Source of the DNA: Candidatus Woesearchaeota archaeon
GTDB lineage: Archaea > Nanobdellota > Nanobdellia > Pacearchaeales > GW2011-AR1
Direction: 5' to 3'
NCBI GenBank assembly: GCA_964364885.1
Contig: CAYIOA010000002.1
Coordinates: 1-54,786 of the forward strand
DNA: 54,786 nucleotides
The notes under the pieces were generated by a model. It was not told the origin of the DNA. It ran no database searches and was given only the letters and a program-made list of their open reading frames with translations. Made by a program: the position numbers and the translations under genes. Shown piece after piece: positions 3,707-29,537 of the stretch. Position 1 is the stretch's first letter; every line of letters starts with the position of its first letter.

Positions 3707-3833
3707 GCCTCTATAGCTCAGTTGGTTAGAGCGCCAGTTTCGTAACCTTAAGAATGTAAATTCTTGAGGTGCTTGCGATTACGCAGCTAATCGGAACAAC
3801 TGGAAGTCGAGGGTTCAACTCCCTCTAGAGGCT
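3707..3833 (+). tRNA. tRNA-Thr(CGU) with 53-nt intron at 37/38; no encoded CCA
   Basis: Acceptor GCCTCTA/TAGAGGC (7 bp). D arm GCTCAGTTGGTTAGAGC. Anticodon stem CCAGT (3734-3738)/ACTGG (3799-3803), loop TTCGTA|intron|A. T arm GAGGGTTCAACTCCCTC. Discriminator T3833. Intron 3745-3797. Confidence 0.85.
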
Positions 3834-6077: not shown

Positions 6078-6340
6078 GTGCAGACAAGTCGGCGCGTTAG
6101 CCCTGCGCCATTCGCAAACGGGCTTCATGGCGAACTTAAAGGAGCGCGTGAGATCGAGGGTTAGCGGACTCTTATCTAACGTTGACGTTTTGTCCTGCTC
6201 GACCGCGCTCTTGCAAAATGGGTCAGGCCGTGAAAGGAGCAGCCCTAAACAGGAAGCGGGGTGCTGGCAGGGTAGCAAAACCGAGGATGGTAAGAATCAT
6301 CCGCTCAATCCAAAATCGAGCAATCTCCCCGTCTGCACAC
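6078..6340 (+). ncRNA. ffs: signal recognition particle RNA (7S/SRP RNA), compact
   Basis: Sharp GC-rich island. Helix-8 signature GGTCAGGCCGTGAAAGGAGCAGCC at 6221-6244 (compare 4.5S GGUCAGGUCCGGAAGGAAGCAGCC). Closing helix GTGCAGAC 6078-6085 / GTCTGCAC 6331-6338. Ends are uncertain by a few nt. Confidence 0.85.
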
Positions 6341-6373
6341 AATTTATTTAAATTCCCCTTTCTATCAATAAAA

Positions 6374-6910
6374 ATGAAAAAAAGAGGGCAGGTCTATCTT
6401 TTAGCTACACTCATCTTAGTCAGTGTGATTGTAAGTCTAGGCACTGTTTATAACAAAGCAAAATTCAATAAAGAAGACGCAACAGCTTTTTATTTAGCAG
6501 ACGAAATCTATTTCGAAGCAAATCAAATAATTGAGCATAGCATAAGAAATTCAGTCCAAGATGCAGTTGTAGCCACTAAGATCGAGGAGTTGCTAGACTA
6601 CTATGCCTCCTCAAATCCCTATAATGACCTTATAGTTATTTACGGAACCCAGCAAACCTTAACAGCTTTCTTTTATGATAATCTCCAAGTCAGCACTCTA
6701 GAAATAAATAATCAGCAAATTTCCAATAATCCAACAACTCTGCTCTCATCTAGCAATCCTGGAACAATCAAAATTACAACTCAGGGCAAAGATATAAATT
6801 ATCAGTTTACTCTGCATCAAGGTAAAAACTTTCTTGTATTAATAAAAAAGGAGAGACAAGGAGAAACCTTTATAGCAATCCCGAAAGGAATTGACATAAC
6901 ACATGTATAA
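6374..6910 (+). CDS. archaeal type IV pilin-like protein
   Basis: Class III signal-peptide-like N-terminus MKKRG|QVYLLATLILVSVIVSLG. The track ORF start (6182) runs through the SRP RNA; ATG 6374 is the plausible start. Confidence 0.6.
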   Translation: MKKRGQVYLLATLILVSVIVSLGTVYNKAKFNKEDATAFYLADEIYFEANQIIEHSIRNSVQDAVVATKIEELLDYYASSNPYNDLIVIYGTQQTLTAFFYDNLQVSTLEINNQQISNNPTTLLSSSNPGTIKITTQGKDINYQFTLHQGKNFLVLIKKERQGETFIAIPKGIDITHV

Positions 6911-16510: not shown

Positions 16511-16525
16511 GATTATACCAATAAT

Positions 16526-16566
16526 CTCTTATTTTTAATTATTCTCTTATTTTTAATTATTCTCTT
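16526..16566. repeat. 18-nt tandem duplication (2.3 copies) CTCTTATTTTTAATTATT
   Basis: Identical units at 16526-16543 and 16544-16561, with a partial third copy at 16562-16566. It spans the stop codon of the Zn-ribbon gene and the TATA region upstream of cca. Confidence 0.85.
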
Positions 16567-16937
16567 CTTAGTTTTGAAGAAAGATCAACTATGTATTTTC
16601 CATCTTCCAGCTTATATACTCTTGGTTTATTAATGGCAAATAAATTTCCCAAGTCTAAAAGGTATTTTCCAGGCTTAATAATCTTTACACTCTCAAAGTC
16701 CAAAAAAACAGGAGTTTCCTCATCTTCAATGCCAGAAATATCTCTCACATCTTTTTCAATCTGTTTTTTTTCAGAAGAGCTCAGCTCCAGGTCCTCCTCT
16801 TTATACTCTTTAATTTTTTCTACTTGCTCTGGTTTAATGTAGAAGAAAAACTTGCCTCTGCAGCCGTCACATCCAGACAAAACCTGACTAGAGCCATCTT
16901 CATATACTTCCGAGCAATGAACACATTTGTAGGGCAT
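16557..16937 (-). CDS. Zn-ribbon protein (DUF2072/COG3364-like)
   Basis: N-terminal CVHC-x14-CDGC ribbon followed by an acidic linker. Sits in the position seen for the Zn-ribbon partner of DUF2073 and the GTPase in archaea (family assignment from memory). Confidence 0.55.
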   Translation of the reverse strand: MPYKCVHCSEVYEDGSSQVLSGCDGCRGKFFFYIKPEQVEKIKEYKEEDLELSSSEKKQIEKDVRDISGIEDEETPVFLDFESVKIIKPGKYLLDLGNLFAINKPRVYKLEDGKYIVDLSSKLRRE

Positions 16938-16993
16938 ATCTTAAAAAACAATATCTTATTAATAAACATTTAGATGTTCTAAATAAAAAACCT

Positions 16994-17377
16994 CTAATTC
17001 AGCCATAACTCTAGTTTTCTCGGGTCTCTTTTAATCTCTTTTATCACTGAAGCAGGTCCAATAACACTCAAACAGCTGTTATCACCAACAAGTCTTTTTG
17101 CCAGGCCATGTTTCATTTTAATCAGGATATTCTTCCCTTTAATATTCGGTTCAATAACTGCAAGCTCAATTCCCTTAAAGCTTTTGATATGGTCAACAAG
17201 AGCCATAGTATCCTCTATAAGCCTAGCTTCCTCTTCAGGCCTTAATCTGCCGTGCAATATCACTATTTTATTGCCTAAAACAAGGTTCAATATTTTTTTT
17301 ACACGCTCCCCTATAGAAAGTTTTTGCACCTCTGAAAACGGAATTACATGCAAGCTAAGACCCCTTATTCTTTTCAT
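16994..17377 (-). CDS. DUF2073-like protein
   Basis: 127 aa. The KIVILHGRLRPEEEARLIEDTMALV segment resembles the archaeal DUF2073 core. Lies between the GTPase and the Zn-ribbon gene. Confidence 0.5.
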   Translation of the reverse strand: MKRIRGLSLHVIPFSEVQKLSIGERVKKILNLVLGNKIVILHGRLRPEEEARLIEDTMALVDHIKSFKGIELAVIEPNIKGKNILIKMKHGLAKRLVGDNSCLSVIGPASVIKEIKRDPRKLELWLN

Positions 17378-17395
17378 CTCTTTTACCTCTTATCT

Positions 17396-18034
17396 TTATA
17401 CCTCTTTTGACAATTTAAATAAAGACCCGTAAAATTCCTCAATATTCGTCCCGTCTCTAGCTGAAATTCCAACAACTTTGTATTCCGGAAAAGCACTTTC
17501 AATTTTTTTTATGTCTGCTTTTTTAAGATCAATCTTGTTCGCAGCAATTAAAACAGGAATCTTTCTAGCGATAAGATTCCCTATTATTGTTATATTCACC
17601 TGAGAATAGGGATTCTGCGTTGAGTCTAGAACAACAATAACTGCGTCCATATCATCTAGCCACTTTATAGATTCTATAATCCCCTGCGTAGCCTCCTTGG
17701 CTCTCTTTTTCGCATCGCTTTTTTTCATTCCATATTTTAAGAAATCTTCATAATCTATCTTAGTAGCTATCCCCGGCGTATCAACTATCTTAAACATTAA
17801 ATTTTTGCCCTTGTTTTTTATTTTAACTTGCTCTTTAATCTGGACATTCCTTGTTTCATGCGGCACATTGCTGACTTTTCCCATTTCTTCGCCCACCCAA
17901 TCTTTGCATATCCTATTTGCCAGACTAGTCTTTCCAGAATTGGGGGGCCCATAAAACCCTATTTTTATATTATCTTTTCTTCTAAAAAAATTACCGATTA
18001 TTCTCTTCGAAATCTTTTTTATAATCTCCAGCAT
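17396..18034 (-). CDS. small GTP-binding protein
   Basis: G1 GPPNSGKTS, G3 DTPG, G4 NKID. 212 aa. Confidence 0.85.
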   Translation of the reverse strand: MLEIIKKISKRIIGNFFRRKDNIKIGFYGPPNSGKTSLANRICKDWVGEEMGKVSNVPHETRNVQIKEQVKIKNKGKNLMFKIVDTPGIATKIDYEDFLKYGMKKSDAKKRAKEATQGIIESIKWLDDMDAVIVVLDSTQNPYSQVNITIIGNLIARKIPVLIAANKIDLKKADIKKIESAFPEYKVVGISARDGTNIEEFYGSLFKLSKEV

Positions 18035-18039
18035 CTGAA

Positions 18040-20736
18040 TTAGAGAGATGGTCTTTTAATAAATCTTGCGTCTAGAGGAACCCCTTGTTTCCTTTCAAGT
18101 TCTTGTCTGACTTTCCTGTTTTCTAAGAACTTAAATAGGGGTATTTCCCACATTCCCGTTCTCTTTCCGGCAATTTTCCTAAAAGCATAAGTTGCTTGCT
18201 CCCTCTTCCATTTCTTCTCTCCCAGCTTGCTTTTAATTTCGTCGTCCTTTAATCCAAACTTTCTGGAGTTATAAACAAAATTCAGAATATTATATAGGTC
18301 ATCAGGATTTTTAAATAATCTTTTTTCATAATATCTCTTATACCACTCCTGGAGAATAATATACAAAATAAGCGTTCCCAACAAAATAAAGAGCATGCTT
18401 ATATTATAAAATTTCCAAGGAAACTTCCACCTGTATACCTCTCCCAGAGGCTTGTCTCCGCCAAATTTATCACTCCTAGGAGATAAGTATATCCCCAGCT
18501 CATCAACGTTAGGAACTTCCCCCCCAGCCAGAAATTCTATCTCGCCGGGTTCTCCAGACTCTCCAATTGGGATATAAACTGCGCTTCCGTCGCTGAGATA
18601 TCCCGCACCATAATCTCTCATGAAAATTATAGAATCCCTCGGGTAATTTATAACTAAATACGACTGCTCGTTCTGCGCAGCTTTCTGCTCCAATGAAATT
18701 TTATATTTTCCGAATATATCTCTCTCTGCATAATCTTCTTTAATAGAGAAAATCTCAAAATCAATCTCAAAATCATAATTATCATCCATCCATGCAATAA
18801 TATTATTCTCTAATTCTTCCCCTCCCTCGCTTCCTGATATTTCCTCTATAATGCTTGTGTCAATATTATTAAATCCAATCTCCCCAGGAAGGCTTCCGCG
18901 TTTGCTTATATAAACAGAATAAGGTATATCCATTTTAATAAGAGAATCTAATATCTTTGAGTATGCCTCTGTTTTAGCATCACTTTTCAAACTCGAGAAT
19001 TCATTTTTTATCTTTGTCAAGGAAGACGAACTCTCGTCTAGTTTTATTTCTTTTTTAATCTCTTTTCCAATCCATCCTGGAAGGGAATTTATATCTCCCT
19101 CAACATCTTTTATTCTAGTCTCATATTTCACTATTGTGATATTTGCAGATGTTCTTGGCTCTCCAACAATAACCTTGAATTTCTTAGTGGAGCTCTCTCC
19201 TGCAGCATTGCTGGCAGAAACTTCAATTATAAACTCTCCCTCTTTCATATAAGCGTACTCTGCCTCATTTTTATTGCCTTTCACTTCGCCTCCTCCATCC
19301 CCAAACTTCCAAGATGATGAAACTATTTCTTCTGCACTGATTGCTCTGAATAAAGTTTTATATCCAACAAGTATAACTCTAGGACTAACGCTAAAATCAA
19401 ATCCAACATCAACATTTACTGTTTCATTAAGAATTTTCTCTCCATCCAGATAAAGAAGAAAATCATGGTTTCCATCTCTGTTTGGAACCTCAAATTTCAT
19501 TTTCTCTAGACTTAAAAGAAGATGTTTTGAACTGATTGAAGAATCTTTGTTTGTTATCTCAAAGATATTCTTTTCTTCAAGCGCGACGTTTTCTCTTTTA
19601 TATATAATCTTTACATTGCTGATTGCTATTCCATTATCAGCTCCCCAGAGCCCAATAGGAATAACGCATCCATTTGAGCAATTATTATTGTAAACCCTAG
19701 TAAGATAACCATTAACATCTTTTACAAGCTCCTGTCCATTCAGGTTTTTGTATACTGCTTCATCAAAATTTATCGTTCCAATTGGAGCATATTTCAAAGG
19801 AACAGCATAAATCTCATAATCAAAATTTGGTCCTGTGCCTGGAGTTGCAGGATGTCCTGTTCTTCCGCACGAATCATCGGCTCCCCTGAATCTTATCTTA
19901 AACTTTCCAGAGTTATCACTGTCACTAACACAAACATAACCCTCTTCTACTTGCTTTTTAGGATGATACTTTATATTTACACTAACATCTCCTGCTTGAG
20001 GATCGCCAACTTCAAAACCGCCGGAATATGTTCCGCTTAGATTATACATTTTAAATTGGAGTCTTCCTCCGCTTCCTTCTTTCTGAATCTTAGCCCCGAC
20101 TTTATATCCTGGAGCTGCCTTTAATTTTATTTTTTCGCAATATCCAGTACTATCAATTATAGCGCTCCCTTCTATGTTTCCATCATCTCTAAAACACCCA
20201 TAATTAATTTGCTCTGTCTCGCATACTTCTCCGGCATTTGTATTAAAAAAGTCAGCTTCTAAATCATTGAACATATCAAGATAAAGCTGATTTGTGCAGC
20301 TGCTCTGGCTTGTTTCACTGTTTATATCAAATTTCATACTGCTAACAGATACTTTCTCTCCGTTCAGCTTAAACCCATACAATTTTTTATTGCTTCCTAA
20401 AGAAATTAGTGCGCTTTCTGCCCCGGTTCCATCAAGCTCAACATAACCTCTTTCGCAATTAAATGGCTCGCAAAAGAAGTCTCTTCCAAAAGCATATCCG
20501 GAAAGGTTTAACACCTCTAAAAGTTTCTTTGTGCCGTTAAAATTACTAGTGAATTCAGAATTCCTCTGCTCTGAGAAGCTAATATTAATAACTCCTCTAA
20601 CAACCTCTCCTTCTAAATAATTTTTTTCAATTCTCGAGCCATTTTCATTATAATTAAAATTTCCGGCAGCAAATGCTCCTCCAGCTAGCAATACAAGAAA
20701 AAACATACAAATAATAATTAAAACTTTTCTTTTCAT
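18040..20736 (-). CDS. large secreted surface protein with PKD domain, C-terminal TM anchor and basic cytoplasmic tail
   Basis: Signal peptide MKRKVLIIICMFFLVLLAGGAFA. PKD signature WKFGDGGG...YAYMKEGEFIIEVSASNAAGES. TM ISMLFILLGTLILYIIL followed by an ~100-aa K/R-rich tail. Confidence 0.8.
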   Translation of the reverse strand: MKRKVLIIICMFFLVLLAGGAFAAGNFNYNENGSRIEKNYLEGEVVRGVINISFSEQRNSEFTSNFNGTKKLLEVLNLSGYAFGRDFFCEPFNCERGYVELDGTGAESALISLGSNKKLYGFKLNGEKVSVSSMKFDINSETSQSSCTNQLYLDMFNDLEADFFNTNAGEVCETEQINYGCFRDDGNIEGSAIIDSTGYCEKIKLKAAPGYKVGAKIQKEGSGGRLQFKMYNLSGTYSGGFEVGDPQAGDVSVNIKYHPKKQVEEGYVCVSDSDNSGKFKIRFRGADDSCGRTGHPATPGTGPNFDYEIYAVPLKYAPIGTINFDEAVYKNLNGQELVKDVNGYLTRVYNNNCSNGCVIPIGLWGADNGIAISNVKIIYKRENVALEEKNIFEITNKDSSISSKHLLLSLEKMKFEVPNRDGNHDFLLYLDGEKILNETVNVDVGFDFSVSPRVILVGYKTLFRAISAEEIVSSSWKFGDGGGEVKGNKNEAEYAYMKEGEFIIEVSASNAAGESSTKKFKVIVGEPRTSANITIVKYETRIKDVEGDINSLPGWIGKEIKKEIKLDESSSSLTKIKNEFSSLKSDAKTEAYSKILDSLIKMDIPYSVYISKRGSLPGEIGFNNIDTSIIEEISGSEGGEELENNIIAWMDDNYDFEIDFEIFSIKEDYAERDIFGKYKISLEQKAAQNEQSYLVINYPRDSIIFMRDYGAGYLSDGSAVYIPIGESGEPGEIEFLAGGEVPNVDELGIYLSPRSDKFGGDKPLGEVYRWKFPWKFYNISMLFILLGTLILYIILQEWYKRYYEKRLFKNPDDLYNILNFVYNSRKFGLKDDEIKSKLGEKKWKREQATYAFRKIAGKRTGMWEIPLFKFLENRKVRQELERKQGVPLDARFIKRPSL

Positions 20737-21947
20737 TTTCTTTTCATTGAATAAAACAAGTATACAACAAACAAAATTGACAAGCTCAAAACAAAACTAA
20801 ATCCGCTGAAAAACGGCAATTGGAGAACTCTCGGGCATGGCACATCGATATCGCAAAGTTGATCAACACCACAACCAGCATCACAACCATCTGGTTCAGA
20901 CTCATATACAACATTTCTGCTTGTCTGTCCTTCTGTACATTCTGGTATCGCTCCAACAGGAAAGATAGAGCACGTTATTGCCGTCGGACCACTGCCAGTT
21001 GTCTTAGAATAAACGCATTTATTATCACTTGCTTTCCACACACAAGCTCCTCCAGCAGTAGCTGTTTGTCTATTCAAAGGGTCTTTAATATTTACACCAT
21101 AACAATCTTTCTCGCAGGCGTTTTTATTCACATTTGCATCACTGCTTACTTTATTATAATCATCGCAGCTTGATATAGGATAAGTATTTCCTCCAGAATC
21201 ATATGTTGTAGGACTGCAAACTCCCCCTCCGCCTCCTGGAGGAGGACCACCTCCAGTACATTGCGAAGTATCAAACGCGCATAAGGCAGTGCATCCAAGA
21301 GTGCCCCCAGTAAATCCGCCCCCGATAGTTGTGCAGTCATTCACTCCTAAACTACTTCCATCGCAACTCTCTCCAGGATCAACAACACCATCACCACAAC
21401 TACTCGTAAGAGGACAATCATGCGGGCAATTATTTGGATTCTCCCCGCTTTCACAGCTACTGTCATAATCGCAAATTGGAGTATCTCCAGGACTAACGCA
21501 GCACAAGCTATTAGGATACCTATTGCTTAGTGCAACATGCGCATTCGTATTAGAAGATAAAGAAACAATAAAAGAACTTTTGTCTCCTCCAAGAGTATAT
21601 CCCTCACATTTATCGCTCCTTAATTCACACACTAAATCCCCATAGGTTACCAGAGTATTATAAATCGATCCACTAGGTCCTTCAGCATGCGCATTTGTGC
21701 TGGCGCTCAACTTCAACATAGTATTTGATCCTCCTCCAACACTGCCAGAAAAATAATTATCAAAGCATACCTCTCCATTATATGAACTGCCGATGGCAGT
21801 TCCAGCATGCGCATTCGCAGCACCAGATATCTTGAACATTATTTGAGAAGAAGAGCTGCAAGTCGTCTGCGCAGAAGCAAAACTCGCAAAGATAATAAAC
21901 ACGCTTATAAAAGCCAGTATTAAACAAAACCTCTTCATCCCTATCAT
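20733..21947 (-). CDS. secreted Cys-rich repeat protein with C-terminal TM anchor
   Basis: Signal peptide. Three N-terminal repeats containing NAH[AV] (SGAANAHAG, SASTNAHAE, SSNTNAHVA). CGDGVVDPGESCDG Cys-rich repeat. Gly/Pro linker. C-terminal TM. Confidence 0.75.
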   Translation of the reverse strand: MIGMKRFCLILAFISVFIIFASFASAQTTCSSSSQIMFKISGAANAHAGTAIGSSYNGEVCFDNYFSGSVGGGSNTMLKLSASTNAHAEGPSGSIYNTLVTYGDLVCELRSDKCEGYTLGGDKSSFIVSLSSNTNAHVALSNRYPNSLCCVSPGDTPICDYDSSCESGENPNNCPHDCPLTSSCGDGVVDPGESCDGSSLGVNDCTTIGGGFTGGTLGCTALCAFDTSQCTGGGPPPGGGGGVCSPTTYDSGGNTYPISSCDDYNKVSSDANVNKNACEKDCYGVNIKDPLNRQTATAGGACVWKASDNKCVYSKTTGSGPTAITCSIFPVGAIPECTEGQTSRNVVYESEPDGCDAGCGVDQLCDIDVPCPRVLQLPFFSGFSFVLSLSILFVVYLFYSMKRK

Positions 21948-21983
21948 AGAGAATTAAACTTTATAAAGATTATCCAGACGAGA

Positions 21984-22388
21984 TTATTTTTTCCAAACAG
22001 AAATTTTAACTTTTTTTGGCGCATAATTAGCTATGTTAGGGCAAGCACTAATCACCCTCTCGCTGGAATAAACCTGCCCGCTGGATGTTATTGCTAATAC
22101 GCAAGGAGCTCCCAAATCACATATATCAAAGCTATAATCAAAAGCAGCGCTGTTTATTCTGTTATTTAAAAAAGGGGTTATAGTAGTCACACTTGTTGGA
22201 TTATCATTGCATACGCTCTCTCTTAAAACTCTGTCTTTGGCAATCTCCTCTAAAACAGGGGGGATAATATCAGACAAGTCCTCCTCACCAGAACTTCTTT
22301 GATAATAAAAGAAAATAATAACTCCAAAAATAATCATTATAGATATCATTGCCTCTGCAATTCTTGCAACTCCCATTTTGTCTACCAT
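21984..22388 (-). CDS. small pilin-like or membrane-anchored protein
   Basis: Short leader then hydrophobic helix (MG VARIAEAMISIMIIFGVIIFF). Start is either 22388 or 22376. Confidence 0.4.
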   Translation of the reverse strand: MVDKMGVARIAEAMISIMIIFGVIIFFYYQRSSGEEDLSDIIPPVLEEIAKDRVLRESVCNDNPTSVTTITPFLNNRINSAAFDYSFDICDLGAPCVLAITSSGQVYSSERVISACPNIANYAPKKVKISVWKK

Positions 22389-23146
22389 ATTGTAACAGTC
22401 AAATCAGCAAATTCAATTCCCCCGTATTTTCTTAAAATTTCCACTCTTTTTGTGATTGAGTAAGTTTCAATATTATCAGGAATGTTCCTCTGGGCAACAA
22501 TGCTATTGCCATCACTAAATATAACTGAGAAGCCAAAATCAACTCTATTTGGGATATTGAATCCACTCGCTCCTTTAAAGGTTGCATAATCAGTTGTGTA
22601 ATCTACTTTCAATTGCTCAAGCTTTTTTTCAGATAAATACTCTCCAATCTTCGAGGATAGTATCTCATAGCCCACTTCTCCATGCGGACCATCAGCTATA
22701 GCATCATTAGAAAATTCTTCACTAAACCTTATTATAATAACCTCTGTATCTGTCCATATGCCAGAAGTAGGTTTGACATATATTAAATCCCCAGTTCGTT
22801 TAGAGTCTATAGGAGTTCCATCACTTCTCTCACCATCTGGATTCCTGCCAGTGCCAATTCCAGGGAGATTTATTGCAAAAAGAAATCCTCCAATCTGGAT
22901 TAAATGAGCCGTGCAATCAGATCCAGGAATAATAACTTTACTGCAGTCAATTCTAACAAAATAGCTCTCAACTTCAACACCTGCGTTTCTATTTATTTCT
23001 CTAAAAACATAATCTATTGAGCTGTCAATTAAGCGGTTGCTGTCAAAAGGGCTGAAGAAATAAAGTGCGAATCCCACGGCCCCTGCAAAAATAATAAACG
23101 ACAAAATAATCTCTACATGGCTGATTCCTCTTTTCTTCATTGCCAA
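22382..23146 (-). CDS. type IV pilin-like protein
   Basis: MAMKKRG|ISHVEIILSFIIFAGAVGFALYF: class III signal with Glu at +5. Confidence 0.6.
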   Translation of the reverse strand: MAMKKRGISHVEIILSFIIFAGAVGFALYFFSPFDSNRLIDSSIDYVFREINRNAGVEVESYFVRIDCSKVIIPGSDCTAHLIQIGGFLFAINLPGIGTGRNPDGERSDGTPIDSKRTGDLIYVKPTSGIWTDTEVIIIRFSEEFSNDAIADGPHGEVGYEILSSKIGEYLSEKKLEQLKVDYTTDYATFKGASGFNIPNRVDFGFSVIFSDGNSIVAQRNIPDNIETYSITKRVEILRKYGGIEFADLTVTIW

Positions 23147-23191: not shown

Positions 23192-23974
23192 ATGAACACA
23201 AATGAAGAGATTATAAGAAAGATAAAATCAAAGAAAGAGCTCTCAGGAATTACAAATTCAATTGTAGAGGAGCATCTCAGCAATTACATAAAAAAAAGAG
23301 GAATAAACCTTCCCGAATTAAGAGAAAAACAGTTAAAAATAATAATAAAAGAAATACGGGCAAAGCTCAGAACTTTGTCAGGGCAATACCAAAGAGGCGT
23401 AAAACATAGATTAAAATTTCTTAACAATAAAGAATTAGAAAATTTATTAAGAACGCATTCATCAACTTCAGAAAGAATTGATTTTTATCCCTCTTTAAAG
23501 AAGATGATAAAAAACTTAAAGATTAAATCAATTTTAGACTTAGGATGCGGATTAAATCCTATAGCTCTATCAGATAAAAAAATAAAGTATTATGCTTCAG
23601 ACATAAAAGAAGATGAGCTATCCCTAATAGAGTCGTATTTCGCGCAAAACAAAATAAACGGAAGAACTTTTGTTTATGATATAAGAGCAATAAAAGATGA
23701 CCTCCCAAAGGCAGATTTATGCCTGTTATTTAAAGTAATAGACCTTGTATCAAAAAATAATAAATCCCTCACAAAAAATATTTTATCCAATATCAAGTGT
23801 AAATATATCCTTGTCAGCTTTCCAACAAAAAAACTCTCAGGAAGACCAATGTCAAAGCCAAAAAGAATATGGTTTGAAAGAATACTGGCAGAATTAAATA
23901 TGAAATTTGAAACATTCCAGTCAGACAATGAAATATTCTACCTCATCAATACACGTGAAAAATCTTCAATCTAG
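23192..23974 (+). CDS. FmrO/ArmA/Rmt-family 16S rRNA (guanine-N7) methyltransferase homologue
   Basis: Collinear with ArmA/RmtB as I recall them: LLRTHSSTSERI, SILDLGCGLNPIAL (SAM motif I), YYASDI, DLCLLFKVIDLV, ILVSFPTKKLSGR...IWFE, NEIFYLI. Confidence 0.72.
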   Translation: MNTNEEIIRKIKSKKELSGITNSIVEEHLSNYIKKRGINLPELREKQLKIIIKEIRAKLRTLSGQYQRGVKHRLKFLNNKELENLLRTHSSTSERIDFYPSLKKMIKNLKIKSILDLGCGLNPIALSDKKIKYYASDIKEDELSLIESYFAQNKINGRTFVYDIRAIKDDLPKADLCLLFKVIDLVSKNNKSLTKNILSNIKCKYILVSFPTKKLSGRPMSKPKRIWFERILAELNMKFETFQSDNEIFYLINTREKSSI

Positions 23975-24067: not shown

Positions 24068-24940
24068 TTAAGCACTCGGCGTTGATAAGAACAGCTTTGA
24101 TCCTGTAGAAACGAGAAAAGCTATTGTCATAAGGATAAAAGAATGTTTAATTCCGCTCTTAATAGATCCTTCAGCAAGTTTTCCTATCGTTAGGCCTATA
24201 AAAAACCCCTGTGCCAAAATAAGATATAAAAAAGATTTGCTAAACTGTTCTGTCGAACTCGCAATCTCTTCAGAACTGCTCTGCTGCTCAAGACTGCTTA
24301 CACTAAAGTCAAATCCTCCTATCCCTCCTATACCGCTTGTCAGAGGAATAATCCTGAACTCCATAACAAGTATTATCCCTAAAAACAAAAAGAATATTAC
24401 ATATCCCTGAACCACTAGATTATAAATTGCAGACTTTCTTTCTTTCTTAAGCTTTTCAACCTCAGATATTGATTTGGCAGTTGAGTCAAGAATATAATCT
24501 ATCTCCCCTCCGGCCTTCTCAGCTTCTCTTATCAAGGCAACAGCCCTTTTTATAACAGAGCTGTTGACATCACTGGAAAAGTTCTGCAAAGCCACGTCAA
24601 CTGAAACACCAAGCTCTATTTGATTAGAAAGTTTTGTTAAATAAGGATTCAAAACACCATAATTTTTTTTCCTAATGTTAATGACGCTCCGGCTTATAGG
24701 AGTCCCAGTAGAAACACTCTCAGCAAGATTGCGCGTGAACTCCAAGAACATCTCATTTATCTGTTGCTCTTTTTTATTCTCAAGTGTAAGGCCTACAACA
24801 AAAGGGAGAGCAGCTATCCCCCATGCGATTCCAATCAAAAAGAATAGCATTCTTTCATCATTAAAAAAGAATATAAGGTCAACTATCACAACTACAACTG
24901 CAATTATTATTCCAAACCAATGCATTTTTTTCAATCTCAT
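24068..24940 (-). CDS. type IV pilus platform protein, T2SSF-domain (FlaJ/TadC-like, C-terminal half)
   Basis: 290 aa polytopic protein with one T2SSF-like cytoplasmic domain (FTRNLAESVSTGTPISRSV...ALIREAEKAGGEI). Confidence 0.8.
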   Translation of the reverse strand: MRLKKMHWFGIIIAVVVVIVDLIFFFNDERMLFFLIGIAWGIAALPFVVGLTLENKKEQQINEMFLEFTRNLAESVSTGTPISRSVINIRKKNYGVLNPYLTKLSNQIELGVSVDVALQNFSSDVNSSVIKRAVALIREAEKAGGEIDYILDSTAKSISEVEKLKKERKSAIYNLVVQGYVIFFLFLGIILVMEFRIIPLTSGIGGIGGFDFSVSSLEQQSSSEEIASSTEQFSKSFLYLILAQGFFIGLTIGKLAEGSIKSGIKHSFILMTIAFLVSTGSKLFLSTPSA

Positions 24941-24941
24941 T

Positions 24942-26255
24942 TTAATAAGTTGGCTGCCTCAAATGCAACAGTATAAGGAAAAGAATATTTAATAATGCTA
25001 CTCCCAGAATAACCAAGAGAGATAACTGCAACGAACTAAGGCCGACATTAAATCCAGCAAGCATAATCATAATAAAAAGCAGTAAGAAAACCATTGGAGC
25101 AGCTATAACCAGGCTGATATAGATATCAAGAAAAGTCTCAGCAGTTTTAGTGTATTTCTCTCTGTCAAGCCTGTAATTTAATAGCAAAGTTTCAGCTCTT
25201 TTCTCAAAAAATTCAGGCAAGCTCGCCCCGGAAGTTATTGTTGTTGATAACCCGGAAAACAATTCAGACAATTTTTCACTAGGCGTGCTAATAGAAGCAT
25301 TGTTTAAGGCAGTAATCAAATCATATCCATATAAATTAATCTGATTCAAGACCTTCCTTATCTCCTTCCTCAAGTAAGGATACTCCCTGTTTAGTCCTAT
25401 TATTCTAAATATCTCGCTTGGCTCAATGCCTGACCCGGATATGGCGCTCATATGTATTACTGCAAACGGCAGCTCAATATCTATTCTTCTTTGGAGAGAT
25501 TTTTTCTCAGTAGAAGGGTAAACATAAAGAATAAGAAAAACAAGCACCGGCGATACAAAAGGTATCCAGAATATCTTTGCGAATCTTAGCAAGTAGCTTC
25601 CATTAAAAAACTCGAAAAAAGGAAATCCAGGCGCAAAATCAAAAAAGAAAAAAAACACAACTGCAAAAATGGATAAGACTAAAGTAAGAAAGCTGGAGAG
25701 AAGTATAACTGCGACATAAGACTCCAGCAGCAAATCAAGATTGGATTTTTTTAATTCAACAGACAAGTTCTTAAAATACCCTTTTTTTATCAAAATATCT
25801 GCCCTGTCAAAGAAGAATTTGTTTGCCAGCTTAAAATATCCTCTGCCAACCTTAAATTCTGTATATACCTCTTTTTCCTCGCGTCTCTTCTTTTTAATCT
25901 TCCTAAGCAGGTTCTCGCCTATGCTCAGCTCGCGCAGGAATTTCTCCTTATCTCTTCTGTCTAGTACGACCTCAAGGCTCCTGTCGCTTCTCTTGAATTT
26001 TATTCTCTCAAAACTAAATCTCGCACTCCTCGGCTTGGCACTGTCAGAAGGAAGCTTTTTTGTTATCTCAATATCTTTCAGCAGTTTTGGAATAGAGGCA
26101 TTTATTATTTTTATAGTCTTCTCTAAAGAAACTATTGAGCCAATCAAAAGAGATTTTTCATGCTCGCTCACATATTCCAGACTCCTCGTGTAATTTGATA
26201 TTTCTCTGAGTATTCCTATTTCAGTTCTAACATTATTTTTCAATTCATCTATCAT
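24942..26255 (-). CDS. type IV pilus platform protein, T2SSF-domain (FlaJ/TadC-like, N-terminal half)
   Basis: 437 aa: a charged N-terminal region, TMs, and a T2SSF-like domain (ELPFAVIHMSAISGSGIEPSEIF...SGLSTTITSGASL). 1-nt gap to the next gene. Confidence 0.8.
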   Translation of the reverse strand: MIDELKNNVRTEIGILREISNYTRSLEYVSEHEKSLLIGSIVSLEKTIKIINASIPKLLKDIEITKKLPSDSAKPRSARFSFERIKFKRSDRSLEVVLDRRDKEKFLRELSIGENLLRKIKKKRREEKEVYTEFKVGRGYFKLANKFFFDRADILIKKGYFKNLSVELKKSNLDLLLESYVAVILLSSFLTLVLSIFAVVFFFFFDFAPGFPFFEFFNGSYLLRFAKIFWIPFVSPVLVFLILYVYPSTEKKSLQRRIDIELPFAVIHMSAISGSGIEPSEIFRIIGLNREYPYLRKEIRKVLNQINLYGYDLITALNNASISTPSEKLSELFSGLSTTITSGASLPEFFEKRAETLLLNYRLDREKYTKTAETFLDIYISLVIAAPMVFLLLFIMIMLAGFNVGLSSLQLSLLVILGVALLNILFLILLHLRQPTY

Positions 26256-26413
26256 AAAATCTCGTCTATTTGTCTTTGAAAGTTTAAAATCTCTTTTTTA
26301 GCAAGAGCCATCTGCTCAGAATCTTTTTGTTTTTGCGCTTCCTCTAATTTTACTATGCTGTCTTTTATAGCAGTCAAAAGCTGGGCCAAAATAAGAATTT
26401 CCTCTTTTTTCAT
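26252..26413 (-). CDS. 53-aa coiled-coil micro-protein
   Basis: Hand translation: MKKEEILILAQLLTAIKDSIVKLEEAQKQKDSEQMALAKKEILNFQRQIDEIL. Its TGA overlaps the ATG of the platform gene (ATGA). Confidence 0.4.
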   Translation of the reverse strand: MKKEEILILAQLLTAIKDSIVKLEEAQKQKDSEQMALAKKEILNFQRQIDEIL

Positions 26414-26450
26414 AAATCTAAAAGTTATAAAATGTTTATATATCTTTCAA

Positions 26451-27977
26451 TTATCCTTGAATATTATATCTGCTCAAAATTTCTACAGGATTTTTATAAT
26501 ATTCGTTTACAATCCCTCCAACTTGGTCAAATCCAAAAATTTTTCTTTTATACATCTCATACAATAACCTGGACCTAACATCAAGATCTCTCTGGAGTTT
26601 CTCAACAGAAACGCCGGTTTTAGCTGCAATTTTTTCAAAAACCTTGCTTTGTCTTTTATAGTAAAAAGTATCTTTAGAGGGATCCCATTTAAATGGCGAG
26701 TTGACTAAAGCAGTTCCATCCCTGTTAACATTAACAATCTCAACAACTTCTCTAACCTTTCTTGTTTCCTGCCCATTGACTATTGCATGCGTCGCAATTA
26801 AAACACAATCTAAAGAGTTGACAAGGGTAGGCGACAAGTTAATTGGAGGGGTTTGAAGTCTTCTCACCAAGGTATCAACAGAATCAGCATGCATTGTGCT
26901 TATAGATGCATGCCCAGAAGCCATGCCTTGGAATAGAACATATGCTTCTTTTCCTCTGACTTCTCCAACAATTAAGTAATCAGGGTTTTGCCTGAAAGAA
27001 CTCTTTAATATATCAAATAAATCAACTTGTCCGACTTTTCCAATTCCTATAGATGTTCTTGCAACAGAAGGCAGCCAGTTTTCTCTAGGCAGATTAATCT
27101 CCCGAGTATCTTCCAAAGAAACAACTCTCGCTTCAGGAGGTATAAAAAAAGCAAGGGCATTTAATAAAGTGGTTTTCCCGCTTGCAGTACTTCCAGAGAT
27201 AAGTATATTTGCTTTATTTTCTATCAATATCCAAAAATAAGCGAGAATCTCAGGGCTTAAAGTTCTTAACCCAAGAAGCTGTATCGGGGTCCAGGGTATT
27301 TTTGTAAATTTTCTTATGCTGAAACTAGGTCCTCTTGAAGAAACATCCTTTGTAAAAGTAGCATTAACTCTTGAGCCATCTGGCAGAGTTCCATCAAGCA
27401 AAGGCTGCGCATACGACACATACCTCCCAGATCTTTGGGCAAGTTTCTCAACAAAACTAGCGAGCTTATCAATATCATTAAAGATAACATTTGTTCTTAA
27501 ATTTCTATAAACTCGATGAATAACAAAAATAGGAGTTGAAGCTCCATTGCACTCAATATCCTCTATAAAATAATCTTTTAATAACGGATCAACCTCATTC
27601 ATCCCAATAAAATCCCTAAAAAGATAATAAAATATCTTGCTATAGCTGTCTTTGGAAATTTTTATATTTAGCTCGTTAATCAGCAGTCTGGCTGTTTTGT
27701 CTATGTAATCAGAAGTTGCCTCAACAGTTTTTTCCACTGCAACATTTACATTAATTAATTCCAACATCGCGCTTTCAATTTTTTCAAGAACCTTTTTCTC
27801 ATAATCATTGATAATCGGCTCTTCCAATTCATACACCAGCTCATTCAATTTCGTATTCCAGTAGATATGTGTAGAAGCATAAGGAGGCATAAGCATGTAT
27901 CTTACATTGATTTTCTTTTTATTGTCATACTTTGGAAGCGGTGGAATAGACGGATTAAGATTAATTTGGAAGCTCAT
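26451..27977 (-). CDS. type IV pilus/archaellum-type assembly ATPase (FlaI/PilB/VirB11 superfamily)
   Basis: Walker A SGSTASGKTT. Asp and His boxes (LIVGEVRGKEA, GHASISTMHA). The track start at 27992 is TTG; ATG 27977 is preferred. Confidence 0.9.
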   Translation of the reverse strand: MSFQINLNPSIPPLPKYDNKKKINVRYMLMPPYASTHIYWNTKLNELVYELEEPIINDYEKKVLEKIESAMLELINVNVAVEKTVEATSDYIDKTARLLINELNIKISKDSYSKIFYYLFRDFIGMNEVDPLLKDYFIEDIECNGASTPIFVIHRVYRNLRTNVIFNDIDKLASFVEKLAQRSGRYVSYAQPLLDGTLPDGSRVNATFTKDVSSRGPSFSIRKFTKIPWTPIQLLGLRTLSPEILAYFWILIENKANILISGSTASGKTTLLNALAFFIPPEARVVSLEDTREINLPRENWLPSVARTSIGIGKVGQVDLFDILKSSFRQNPDYLIVGEVRGKEAYVLFQGMASGHASISTMHADSVDTLVRRLQTPPINLSPTLVNSLDCVLIATHAIVNGQETRKVREVVEIVNVNRDGTALVNSPFKWDPSKDTFYYKRQSKVFEKIAAKTGVSVEKLQRDLDVRSRLLYEMYKRKIFGFDQVGGIVNEYYKNPVEILSRYNIQG

Positions 27978-28007
27978 ATTTACAATAAACAAATATTTTA
28001 TTTAAAC

Positions 28008-28556
28008 CTATCCTCTAGATATTTCTTCAATATTTATTTGCAATAAGCTGTTAGAAACCCCCAAATTCTCTATAGACAGCTTGTACGGAATTCCCGCAGC
28101 AGAAAGCTTTTTTTCTTTATTACTTGTTTCATAAGCGAGATCAATTTTTCCACTATACTCAAGAGTAATAGTAAGGTTATTATCTCCTTTTTTCTTTTCC
28201 TCAGAGAAAACCTTAAACTTCCCGGATTGCACTTGAACATTCGGCTCAGAATAAGGTTTTTTTAACTCATCCAGCTTAAATACAATCTTGTCATTCAGGC
28301 CATCAATATAAAGACTTCCTCGTTTTATCTTAAACTCAGGGATTATTCTGACATTCCCAGGACCTCGGTCAATAACATCATTTATTTTTTCATCCAGAAC
28401 ATTCAAAGATTCCATTGTCTGCTCAATAACAATTCTATCTTTCGCTTCGCTTATTTTTGGCAGAACTATCGCTAATATAATTCCTATTAAACTTAAGCCG
28501 ATTAAAGTATACAGGACTGTCTCTATCCAAACTTGCCCAACCTTGCTCTTTTTCAT
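28008..28556 (-). CDS. type IV pilin-like protein
   Basis: MKKSKVG|QVWIETVLYTLIGLSLIGIILAIVL, with Glu at +5. Starts 2 nt after the upstream stop. Confidence 0.6.
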   Translation of the reverse strand: MKKSKVGQVWIETVLYTLIGLSLIGIILAIVLPKISEAKDRIVIEQTMESLNVLDEKINDVIDRGPGNVRIIPEFKIKRGSLYIDGLNDKIVFKLDELKKPYSEPNVQVQSGKFKVFSEEKKKGDNNLTITLEYSGKIDLAYETSNKEKKLSAAGIPYKLSIENLGVSNSLLQINIEEISRG

Positions 28557-28558
28557 TT

Positions 28559-29068
28559 TTAGCATGAACTCTTTATTTTTATATAATCTGTTTTTCCACA
28601 AACCCTTCCAGACTTTAATACAGGAACAACTTCAACAGAGTAATACAAATTACTAGATGTATAAAGATAGCTTCTAGTCTCTCCAGTTTTCGGTATTTCT
28701 ATATTCTTGCTTGAATCTGAAAGCATTTTTATACTTCCCGGGCTGTTTCCTTCCAGAACATCAACTGCCTGAAATAAATTTCCATCGCTATAAACAAGTT
28801 TAAATCCAGCGATATTATTATCAGAATCATCAGCTTTAGCCAAAACACTTATCTTATACTCTCCACTAGGCGCATCTAAACAACTAAATCCAGAATCTTC
28901 ATCAAATTTAAAATATTCTTTATAAGCAATACACTCACTGCTGGCATATAAGTTCTTTTTTACAAACGGCACAGCAAATTCTGCAACAATCATCACACTG
29001 CTAACTGTCAATAAAATAATAAAAACTACTGCAACAATCTGGGATAATGCCTTTTTGCCATCAATCAT
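28559..29068 (-). CDS. type IV pilin-like protein
   Basis: MIDGKKA|LSQIVAVVFIILLTVSSVMIV class III-like N-terminus. Confidence 0.55.
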   Translation of the reverse strand: MIDGKKALSQIVAVVFIILLTVSSVMIVAEFAVPFVKKNLYASSECIAYKEYFKFDEDSGFSCLDAPSGEYKISVLAKADDSDNNIAGFKLVYSDGNLFQAVDVLEGNSPGSIKMLSDSSKNIEIPKTGETRSYLYTSSNLYYSVEVVPVLKSGRVCGKTDYIKIKSSC

Positions 29069-29069
29069 T

Positions 29070-29537
29070 TTAAGGTTCTACTATTACCTCTATACCATAA
29101 TCTTTATCGCAAACATAGGCTTTCTTGTAATCTTCACCCTCGCCTAATAAAACAGGCACGACAATAATCTCGTCACCATTATTTAAACTTGGAGCATCAA
29201 CACTAACACTTTCTCCAGTTATCACATTCTGCTCAAGAATCTCTGTTTGGATTGCCTCTCTGAATAAATTTTTCTTAAGAATTTCTATTCCATAAAGCGG
29301 AATTGTTCCAGTATTCTCAATGTGGATTTGCCCGCCGTAAGCTTCCCCCCTGAAACTTACTTCTTCACAAGAGAAGTCTATTTTTCTTTCCCCTTTTGTT
29401 ATTGACTCTCCTATAAAACTCTTAGCCCATATAAAGACAATAACAGCCAGAATAACTGCCAATAAAATAAGAAGAACACTTGCAATAACCGGAGACAAAC
29501 CTCTTTTTTTCTCATTATTCATTCTTTTAAATGCCAC
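29070..29537 (-). CDS. archaeal type IV pilin (Pilin_N/DUF361-type N-terminus)
   Basis: NEKKRG|LSPVIASVLLILLAVILAVIVF, the canonical archaeal pilin N-terminal signature. Confidence 0.75.
   Translation of the reverse strand: MAFKRMNNEKKRGLSPVIASVLLILLAVILAVIVFIWAKSFIGESITKGERKIDFSCEEVSFRGEAYGGQIHIENTGTIPLYGIEILKKNLFREAIQTEILEQNVITGESVSVDAPSLNNGDEIIVVPVLLGEGEDYKKAYVCDKDYGIEVIVEP

Follow-up and report, generated by a model that had tools for sequence, protein, structure and literature searches.

Seven consecutive genes on the minus strand of contig CAYIOA010000002.1 from a Candidatus Woesearchaeota archaeon of the DPANN order Pacearchaeales (54,786 nucleotides (nt), the whole of which is called the window below) encode two pilin-like proteins (pil254 and pil134), a Cys-rich secreted protein (Cys404), a large surface protein with a PKD domain (PKD898), a small GTPase, a DUF2073 protein and a Zn-ribbon protein. 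By sequence, the last three correspond to the archaeal system named OapABC, then ArvABC and then DipABC, and the unit that persists in divergent relatives is a four-gene cassette composed of the PKD protein gene, dipA, dipB and dipC. The reading preferred here, to which a probability of about one half is given, is that of a Dip/Arv system with a lineage-specific fourth, transmembrane (TM) component, PKD898, whose cytoplasmic tail would contact the Dip proteins. The pairing of a single-pass PKD protein with dipABC appears to be undescribed, and no account of Arv/Dip having a PKD or membrane partner in DPANN archaea was found in the literature, the coverage of which was incomplete.

The GTPase matches Pfam MMR_HSR1 (2e-16), while the 127-amino-acid (aa) and 126-aa proteins that follow match OapB (PF09846, formerly DUF2073; 1.8e-16, over the gathering cut-off) and OapC (PF09845; 2.7e-21), respectively. 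DipA carries the motifs GPPNSGKT (Walker A, residue 29), DTPG (85), NKID (166) and SAR (191), and has an amphipathic N-terminal helix, its first 16 residues showing a hydrophobic moment (muH) of about 0.6, whereas DipC shows a CxxC...CxxC Zn-ribbon, an acidic linker and a conserved C-terminus. Across the best 120 matches, DipB is 72-86% identical to the window copy. The nearest named relative of the window, GCA_016188825 (loci L001 and L027; GTDB Nanoarchaeota; Pacearchaeales; GW2011-AR1), has DipA and DipB proteins 79% and 75% identical to those of the window, and it is included with UBA73, PSPM01, MFWN01, CABMGN01 and JAGVXD01, all from the GW2011-AR1 family, in the ArvA/ArvB tables of Mills et al. 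(PNAS 2024, PMC10927574). The trio is assigned to DipABC because OapB and OapC adjoin an MMR_HSR1 GTPase, because this GTPase has the DipA motifs and because relatives are listed as carriers of ArvA and ArvB; orthology to HVO_3014-3012 and the ArvA family rests on these tabulated relatives, not on an alignment with the Haloferax proteins.

An initial annotation of the region, made from its sequence, had considered the trio as lacking an assigned function; instead, vesicle and divisome roles have been ascribed to it from experiments in Haloferax and Archaeoglobus. In Haloferax volcanii, the output of extracellular vesicles is lowered by knockout and raised by overexpression of ArvA and is also affected by ArvB and ArvC, and 1,666 ArvA homologues were found, 7 DPANN phyla being represented among them (Mills et al., PMC10927574). 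In the same organism, loss of any dip gene leads to misplaced division and minicells, all three Dip proteins oscillate from pole to pole in a Min-like manner, and dip mutants are also non-motile (He et al., bioRxiv 10.64898/2026.05.19.726155). The same study showed that Archaeoglobus DipA binds membranes in a GTP-dependent manner through its N-terminal amphipathic helix, that DipB stimulates GTP hydrolysis and detaches DipA, and that overexpression of DipC abolishes FtsZ1 filaments. The OapABC name designates origin-associated proteins (Wolters et al. 2019, as cited in PMC10927574). A replication origin next to the trio, suggested by that name, was considered; no orc1/cdc6 gene adjoins the trio in the window, and the trio differs from OapABC in this absence of an adjoining orc1/cdc6 or origin.

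The trio resembles DipABC of H. volcanii and Archaeoglobus fulgidus by the same three proteins in the same order, the GPPNxGKT/DTPG GTPase with an amphipathic N-terminal helix, DUF2073/OapB directly 3' of the GTPase and the Zn-ribbon OapC located nearby, sometimes displaced. It differs by its short DipC, devoid of a long disordered region, and by the upstream gene: the window and related Nanoarchaeota possess a single-pass PKD protein of ~900 aa before dipA, whereas the upstream neighbour of dipA in Haloferax is oriC1/orc1 (He et al.). The latter authors reported DPANN members of DipABC only in Nanohaloarchaeota. The ArvABC survey, dealing with the same gene family and with GW2011-AR1 genomes in its tables, took in the downstream genes arvB and arvC only, and the searched text of the paper makes no mention of a membrane protein encoded before arvA (Mills et al.).

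The coupling of the PKD protein to the trio had already been proposed in the initial annotation, and examination of the neighbourhood in relatives bears it out, as a PKD homologue lies upstream of the trio in all those examined. When GTDB species genomes were scanned with an alignment of DipB, the best 80 loci were obtained, essentially from one family, 66 of them with enough upstream DNA; in all 66, dipA is preceded by a PKD898 homologue in the same orientation, the gap between both genes having a median of 8 nt. On metagenome contigs anchored on the PKD898 tail, dipA is found immediately downstream in 76 of the 76 loci. Full-length PKD898 homologues occur in metagenome-assembled genomes of Pacearchaeota/Nanoarchaeota (22-42% identity), and five of six fetched contexts display the order T2SSE, two T2SSF, (FmrO), two pilin-like genes, large Cys-rich, PKD, dipA, dipB, dipC and CCA. 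Gaps of at most 150 nt are observed between PKD and dipA in 92% of loci and between dipA and dipB in 94%, the values being 41% for dipB-dipC, 65% for dipC-CCA, 32% for CCA-TrmB and 30% for TrmB-SPP. The PKD-dipA junction is hence as tight as that of dipA-dipB and much tighter than the four others. Indeed, dipC is often moved away from dipB by insertions.

Six contexts (L169-L174) were drawn from a homologue search with the L072 DipA, most divergent in the set. Their DipB proteins are 39-56% identical to that of the window, and a PKD protein of 847-937 aa precedes dipA-dipB-dipC on the same strand in all six. These PKD proteins are homologous to PKD898 over the full length (22-27% identity, E 1e-25 to 1e-64). 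In L170, L171 and L172, all other neighbours are unrelated (AI-2E transporter, amidohydrolase, DisA/DHHA1, transglutaminase, PAC2), and these three neighbourhoods contain no pilus genes, pilin-like genes, Cys-rich protein, CCA, TrmB or SPP. As only this cassette persists in the divergent loci, the conserved unit is the PKD protein together with dipABC, and the adjacency of the PKD gene and dipA is not coincidental.

One insertion between both genes is shared by two related loci (L021 8422-9242; L160 1996-2700). It consists of a small gene located just upstream of a dipA promoter element described below, and the PKD C-terminus is cut to ..ENAAIKPY. Extra open reading frames (ORFs) also stand between dipA and dipB in some of the divergent loci. 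Those of L169 (6563-6853) and L174 (8654-8926) encode 90-96 aa with similar sequences (..KWIS...KYGSEF.G...L.YD), and that of L173 (6379-6849) encodes a 156-aa pilin-like protein. They may be lineage-specific additions to the dip locus.

PKD898 contains a Pfam PKD domain (PF00801) at residues 445-519 (nt 19168-19404; 2.6e-08, 34.2 bits against a cut-off of 23.5 bits). The source annotation gives it 888 aa (P0001), starting at an internal ATG. In a full-length AlphaFold2 (AF2) model with a mean predicted local distance difference test score (pLDDT) of 82.6, read together with the sequence, an N-terminal signal-like helix is followed by a beta-sandwich ectodomain with conserved Cys, the PKD domain and a helical region; a TM helix at 774-807 (nt 18316-18417) then leads to a helical cytoplasmic tail. 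The C-terminal TM segment and the basic cytoplasmic tail of ~100 aa described in the initial annotation are thereby confirmed, the tail after the TM helix having 91 aa and an isoelectric point of 10.1. Foldseek searches with the full-length model returned only generic matches to Ig-like, PKD, CBM, adhesin and S-layer beta-sandwiches, the PKD domains of ColG/ColH being matched with a probability of 1.0; such generic matches do not tell an adhesin from an S-layer protein.

The TM segment and the cytoplasmic tail are the best-conserved part of PKD898. In an alignment of 70 sequences, mean identity to the window protein reaches 0.40-0.62 in residues 781-898 versus 0.18-0.37 in the ectodomain. For residues 791-880, identity is 0.65-0.86 at codon positions 1 and 2 versus 0.36-0.51 at position 3, and this far higher conservation of the first two positions indicates that the tail is under selection at the protein level. 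Its core comprises a juxtamembrane WYKRxYE motif, a three-helix module (LFKNxxDLYNLxNFIYN...GWxxEQIxYAFKK) and a GKRTGMWEIP loop. In the AF2 model, the TM helix runs into a three-helix bundle (811-856), followed by the GKRTGMWEIP loop and a further basic helix, and a model of the tail alone has a mean pLDDT of 80.2.

An exhaustive search with the tail profile recovered 1,135 representative clusters, and the best 150 are nearly all proteins of ~870-990 aa with the module at their C-terminus. No Pfam or NCBIfam match was found for the tail, the PDB gave no sequence match to its profile or to DipB, and Foldseek with the tail-only model gave no match below E=1. The juxtamembrane module (796-857) was detected in all six divergent PKD proteins, with E from 1e-17 to 1e-23. 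In L072 and L169, where an extra gene is inserted directly before dipA, its product is likewise a membrane protein, small in size, with the tail module at its end, the matches being weaker (E 5e-5 and 6e-4).

A second feature of the junction concerns transcription. According to the initial annotation, the few nucleotides separating the PKD and GTPase genes could not accommodate a promoter; this does not hold, as the PKD gene itself carries a conserved dipA element at its 3' end. The sequence GCAAGATTTATTAAAAG (18053-18069) sits in the last PKD898 codons, and the TTTATTAA motif begins 29 nt before the dipA ATG. Among 13 genes tested in loci L009-L088, TTTATTAA is present within -36..-14 before dipA in 74% and before dipC in 71% of loci, versus 0% for the 11 other genes, and it starts at exactly -29 before dipC in 50/76 loci. 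In about 74% of loci, the DNA of the dipA element keeps one and the same distance to dipA, whatever its coding status. In tight junctions, it is in frame and encodes ..RFIKRP. In L010, L015, L043 and L048 it lies in another frame (..KVY-stop), its TAA being the stop codon, and in L016, L021, L049 and L053 it falls between genes, the PKD gene being as far away as 946 nt. Wobble positions are as conserved as positions 1 and 2 only in the last 12 PKD codons.

In the window, GCAAGATTTATTAAAAG occurs as a single exact copy, and the motif count (7 matches versus 4.05 expected at one mismatch) is not significant alone; the promoter evidence is thus the positional conservation across species. A BRE/TATA-like promoter of dipA, BRE being the transcription factor B recognition element, is predicted within these last PKD codons, and the dipA and dipC mRNAs are probably leaderless or near-leaderless. 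A transcription start site (TSS) is predicted within 18034-18040, the interval in which, for the initial annotation, a mapped start would speak against its proposal. The likeness with Haloferax extends to this feature, since a strong primary TSS lies there directly upstream of dipA (He et al.), where a predicted element stands here. The TATA variant shared by dipA and dipC (minus strand, 18056-18067 and 16959-16970) holds even where dipC lies kilobases away from dipAB, and suggests that TTTATTAA is a dip-specific promoter class or a regulator site.

A TATA-like element is also present at -36..-17 before Cys404 in 85% of loci, and Cys404 probably opens a transcription unit that it shares with PKD898. 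Before dipB, the window has a Shine-Dalgarno-like AGAGGT sequence and no TATA, and TATA-like elements are found in only 27% of loci. A T5 run is found after 24% of PKD genes and 39% of dipB genes but after none (0%) of the dipA genes, and in the window six T come after the stop codon of dipB; as such terminators are not discriminating otherwise, they support only the co-transcription of dipA and dipB, which is predicted. Because of the conserved elements before dipA, dipC and Cys404, the seven genes probably form three or four transcription units (pil254-pil134, Cys404-PKD898, dipA-dipB and dipC) and not the one tightly packed operon first proposed. An archaeal promoter hidden in the last codons of the upstream gene calls for caution when operons are deduced from short gaps.

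Between dipC and the CCA-enzyme gene (16525-16560, minus strand), an 18-nt tandem duplication, ATAATTAAAAATAAGAGA twice, was also noticed. Its first copy holds the dipC stop codon, and the second, ~23 nt upstream of the CCA ATG (16510), looks TATA-like.

Several points weigh against PKD898 as a component of the Dip/Arv system. Every locus with a checkable GTDB taxonomy belongs to one family, GW2011-AR1, within which the 17-kilobase region is syntenic, unrelated genes included. Most of the 142 close loci are weak evidence, because the synteny is family-wide and because the overlap of promoter and coding sequence itself disfavours insertions. In the tail, the GKRTGMWEIP...RFIKRP extension is restricted to GW2011-AR1 and is gone in about 7 dipA-adjacent members and in divergent lineages, and the helical module also occurs in a paralogue (P0015, locus L006) without dipA after it. 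The predicted promoter of dipA leaves its co-expression with the PKD gene unenforced. Finally, Dip/Arv works without such a partner in Haloferax and Archaeoglobus, the upstream Haloferax neighbour being oriC1/orc1 (He et al.).

These points also feed the main alternative, possible though doubtful, in which both partners are mere neighbours. PKD898 would be a plain envelope protein, adhesin- or S-layer-like, its tail serving for anchoring, sorting or envelope assembly, and DipABC would be an ordinary cytoplasmic division or vesicle system. Their adjacency would be inherited synteny, frozen by little rearrangement and by the overlap of the dipA promoter with the PKD stop. The very high synteny within the family, even for unrelated genes (CCA, TrmB and SPP are on the same side in 93-98% of loci), agrees with this, as do the specific predicted promoters of dipA and dipC, the L021/L160 insertion upstream of the promoter element with its truncated PKD C-terminus, the module of the L006 paralogue, the S-layer and adhesin beta-sandwiches among the Foldseek matches and the functioning of Dip in Euryarchaeota without a PKD-type protein (He et al.). 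However, the PKD-dipA pair persists where all else has changed (L170-L172), it is also kept across a normal intergenic spacer of 28-300 nt, where no overlap locks it, and the genes inserted before dipA in L072 and L169 encode a membrane protein with the same cytoplasmic module. The close loci being weak evidence, the argument for the cassette rests mainly on the six divergent loci.

The P0015 paralogue was considered as a counter-example, a PKD homologue without dipA next to it, and was rejected as such, being distant (22% identity) and located beside a Cys-rich homologue. That neighbour in L006 (4329-6665) is a 778-aa protein found directly after P0015 and resembling by eye a protein encoded elsewhere in the window (34763-36643, minus strand), which is a 626-aa secreted protein with Cys-rich repeats, a C-terminal TM segment and a Pro-rich cytoplasmic tail. 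If this likeness is real, PKD-type and Cys-rich envelope proteins would pair at more than one genomic place.

Gene identities, the four-gene cassette, the protein-level conservation of the tail and the conserved promoter element are established here, and from them we infer a physical interaction between tail and Dip proteins and its consequence. In a Dip/Arv system with PKD898 as a fourth component, and by homology with Haloferax and Archaeoglobus, DipA-GTP would bind the membrane via its N-terminal amphipathic helix, DipB would stimulate GTP hydrolysis and free DipA, and DipC would be a Zn-ribbon effector acting on FtsZ, the output being division-site placement and/or vesicle budding. Transcription of dipAB and of dipC would each start from its own TATA promoter of the TTTATTAA type; transcripts of the PKD gene may also extend into dipA, but this would not be required. 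The juxtamembrane helical module of PKD898 would most likely be a fixed landmark or docking site at the membrane, to which DipA-GTP or DipB would attach. Such docking would tie the GTPase cycle to a defined place of the envelope in very small cells, probably small enough to preclude a geometry-sensing oscillation.

A functional analogy is offered by MinCDJ-DivIVA of Bacillus subtilis, a Min system that is recruited by a membrane adaptor and a landmark and does not oscillate. In that system too, a membrane-bound NTPase regulating division is tethered by a transmembrane or peripheral landmark. The analogy is functional only: the two systems are unrelated in sequence and fold, that of Dip relies on a GTPase, and the landmark role of PKD898 is hypothetical.

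Vesicle formation provides another way to link PKD898 with the GTPase. As ArvA, the latter would be Arf/Sar1-like, PKD898 would be a cargo or receptor whose tail recruits ArvA, and the cells would form adhesin-decorated vesicles or protrusions for host contact. The shifts in vesicle yield on ArvA knockout or overexpression in Haloferax, the effects of ArvB and ArvC and the presence of ArvA in 7 DPANN phyla (Mills et al.) are in line with such a role, and the single-pass topology with a short basic cytoplasmic tail is reminiscent of eukaryotic cargo receptors; the conserved PKD-dipABC cassette fits as well. This role is nonetheless improbable, since the 2026 work ascribes the knockout phenotypes to misplaced division and minicells, with a Min-like oscillation, which weakens the vesicle view generally (He et al.).

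Next to the conserved cassette, the region would hold a family-specific surface block made of the Cys-rich anchored protein and of the two pilin-like proteins, whose processing and assembly would presumably fall to the type IV pilus-like ATPase/TadC machinery encoded nearby. The pilin-like nature ascribed to pil254 and pil134 in the initial annotation holds for their N-termini, which are conserved and of class III type, and not for a curated family. Indeed, both proteins display a short basic leader ending in Gly, ~20 hydrophobic residues and a Glu near +5. The N-terminus of pil254 is MKKRG/ISHVEIILSFIIFAGAVGFALYFF, with Glu at +5, and that of pil134 is MVDKMG/VARIAEAMISIMIIFGVIIFF, with Glu at +6, the motifs MKKRG/ISH(I/V)E and MV.KKG/WLRIVEA being each kept in about 35 homologues, 36 in the case of pil254. 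Neither protein has a match in Pfam or NCBIfam or to a curated pilin/archaellin N-terminal model, unlike the 155-aa pilin encoded at 29070-29537, which matches TIGR02537 and Pilin_N. From the N-termini of homologues, the true start of pil254 is probably the ATG at 23140 (MKKRGISHVE) rather than the TTG at 23146. The 7-nt overlap of both genes, kept in 13 of the 14 anchored loci, suggests that pil134 is translationally coupled to pil254. Cys404 was rightly described as a Cys-rich secreted protein, as 29 of its residues (7.2%) are Cys and it bears a signal peptide at the N-terminus and a TM segment at the C-terminus; its homologues range from 390 to 1011 aa.

Further upstream, the pilus block (24068-29537), syntenic within the family GW2011-AR1, includes two Pfam T2SSF matches and one T2SSE match. 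No A24 prepilin peptidase was found in the window, where the T2SSE ATPase and both T2SSF proteins are adjacent. A gene of the FmrO family (23192-23974, plus strand), 16S rRNA methyltransferase-like (PF07091, 1.7e-16), stands between the genes of the pilus platform and those of the pilin-like proteins, and occupies the same position in most GW2011-AR1 loci. Two pilin-like genes, then large secreted proteins, near an ATPase and a TadC-like platform, are reminiscent of the minor-pilin/tip-adhesin operons of type IV pili (fimU-pilVWXY1E) and of archaeal type IV pilus loci. The differences are that both large proteins have C-terminal TM anchors here, that pil254 and pil134 have no pilin family match and that the association with PKD-dipABC is limited to one family.

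The initial annotation had united the seven genes in one operon for a pilus or adhesin apparatus for host contact, under an intracellular GTPase switch. The short gaps and overlaps on one strand, the pilus machinery upstream and the conserved arrangement within GW2011-AR1 are compatible with it, whereas the conserved predicted promoters before dipA and dipC and the TATA-like element before Cys404 are not. Moreover, pil254, pil134 and the pilus block are not beside dipABC in L169-L174, nor is Cys404 beside the cassette in L169-L172 and L174. Since the six divergent loci keep PKD-dipABC without pilin-like or Cys-rich neighbours, the pilin-like and Cys-rich genes are family-specific neighbours and not core, and their coupling to the trio as one apparatus is contradicted. 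The experimental roles of the trio are also unrelated to pili, though Haloferax dip mutants are non-motile (He et al.). Altogether, a single seven-gene apparatus is very improbable.

All seven ORFs were re-checked and are on the minus strand, with the positions, spacings and overlaps first reported (Table 1). Their arrangement is far from chance, as it recurs in every related locus examined.

Table 1. Coordinates of the seven genes, of their predicted elements and of adjoining features in the window.
Feature	Position	Strand	Remarks
pil254, 254-aa pilin-like protein	22382-23146	(-)	TTG start in the ORF list; class-III-type signal MKKRG/ISHVE, Glu at +5
pil134, 134-aa short pilin-like protein (MV.KKG/WLRIVEA)	21984-22388	(-)	7-nt overlap with pil254
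Cys404, 404-aa Cys-rich secreted protein	20733-21947	(-)	36-nt gap after pil134
PKD898, 898-aa single-pass surface protein	18040-20736	(-)	ATGA overlap with Cys404 at 20733-20736
dipA/arvA/oapA, 212-aa small membrane-binding GTPase	17396-18034	(-)	5-nt spacer TTCAG (18035-18039) after PKD898
dipB/arvB/oapB (DUF2073), 127 aa	16994-17377	(-)	18-nt gap after dipA
dipC/arvC/oapC Zn-ribbon, 126 aa	16557-16937	(-)	56-nt gap after dipB
Cytoplasmic tail core of PKD898, residues about 796-866	18139-18351	(-)	Most conserved segment of PKD898
Predicted BRE/TATA promoter of dipA-dipB, GCAAGATTTATTAAAAG	18053-18069	(-)	Inside the PKD898 codons for C-terminal ..ARFIKR..
Predicted TATA element of dipC, AATGTTTATTAA	16959-16970	(-)	TTTATTAA begins 29 nt before the dipC ATG
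Type IV pilus-like machinery block (context only)	24068-29537	(-)	2 T2SSF/TadC-like membrane proteins, T2SSE ATPase, 3 pilins
FmrO-like methyltransferase gene	23192-23974	(+)	Separates the pilus block from the seven-gene stretch

The remaining window is the ordinary chromosome of a reduced archaeon, with ArgRS, Mre11/Rad50-like proteins, proteasome, FttA, CCA enzyme, fused primase, PCNA and ribosomal proteins. The primase corresponds to a 514-aa ORF (36664-38208, minus strand) adjoined by PCNA, with weak matches to the small and large primase subunit families, consistent with a PriS-PriL fusion. A small signal recognition particle (SRP) RNA (Rfam RF00169, 42.5 bits against a gathering score of 40 bits) is matched at 6186-6279 (plus strand) and overlaps the start of a 242-aa ORF with a TTG start (6182-6910) and without a Pfam match; this ORF may be spurious, in whole or in its 5' part. 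A 127-nt tRNA match at 3707-3833 (plus strand) implies that the tRNA gene contains an intron.

The functions of Dip/Arv/Oap are recent and disputed, between vesicle formation and Min-like positioning of the divisome, and the system has been described as made of three cytoplasmic proteins. A surface-exposed membrane protein kept at dipA across divergent DPANN loci is a concrete candidate partner. A bolder form of the preferred reading, advanced only tentatively and doubtful as a whole, makes PKD898 a genuine fourth Dip/Arv subunit in Nanoarchaeota, that is, a transmembrane landmark whose helical module would recruit or regulate DipA or DipB, so that an extracellular structure, be it a host-contact site or an envelope feature, would dictate the site of division or vesicle formation. 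If true, it would provide the first case in archaea of an outside-in spatial cue acting on a Min-like or Arf-like GTPase system, and it would explain how such a system could operate in cells too small for pole-to-pole oscillation. The candidate thus bears on how ultra-small, host-attached archaea place their division site or their vesicles, and on whether extracellular contact is coupled to this choice.

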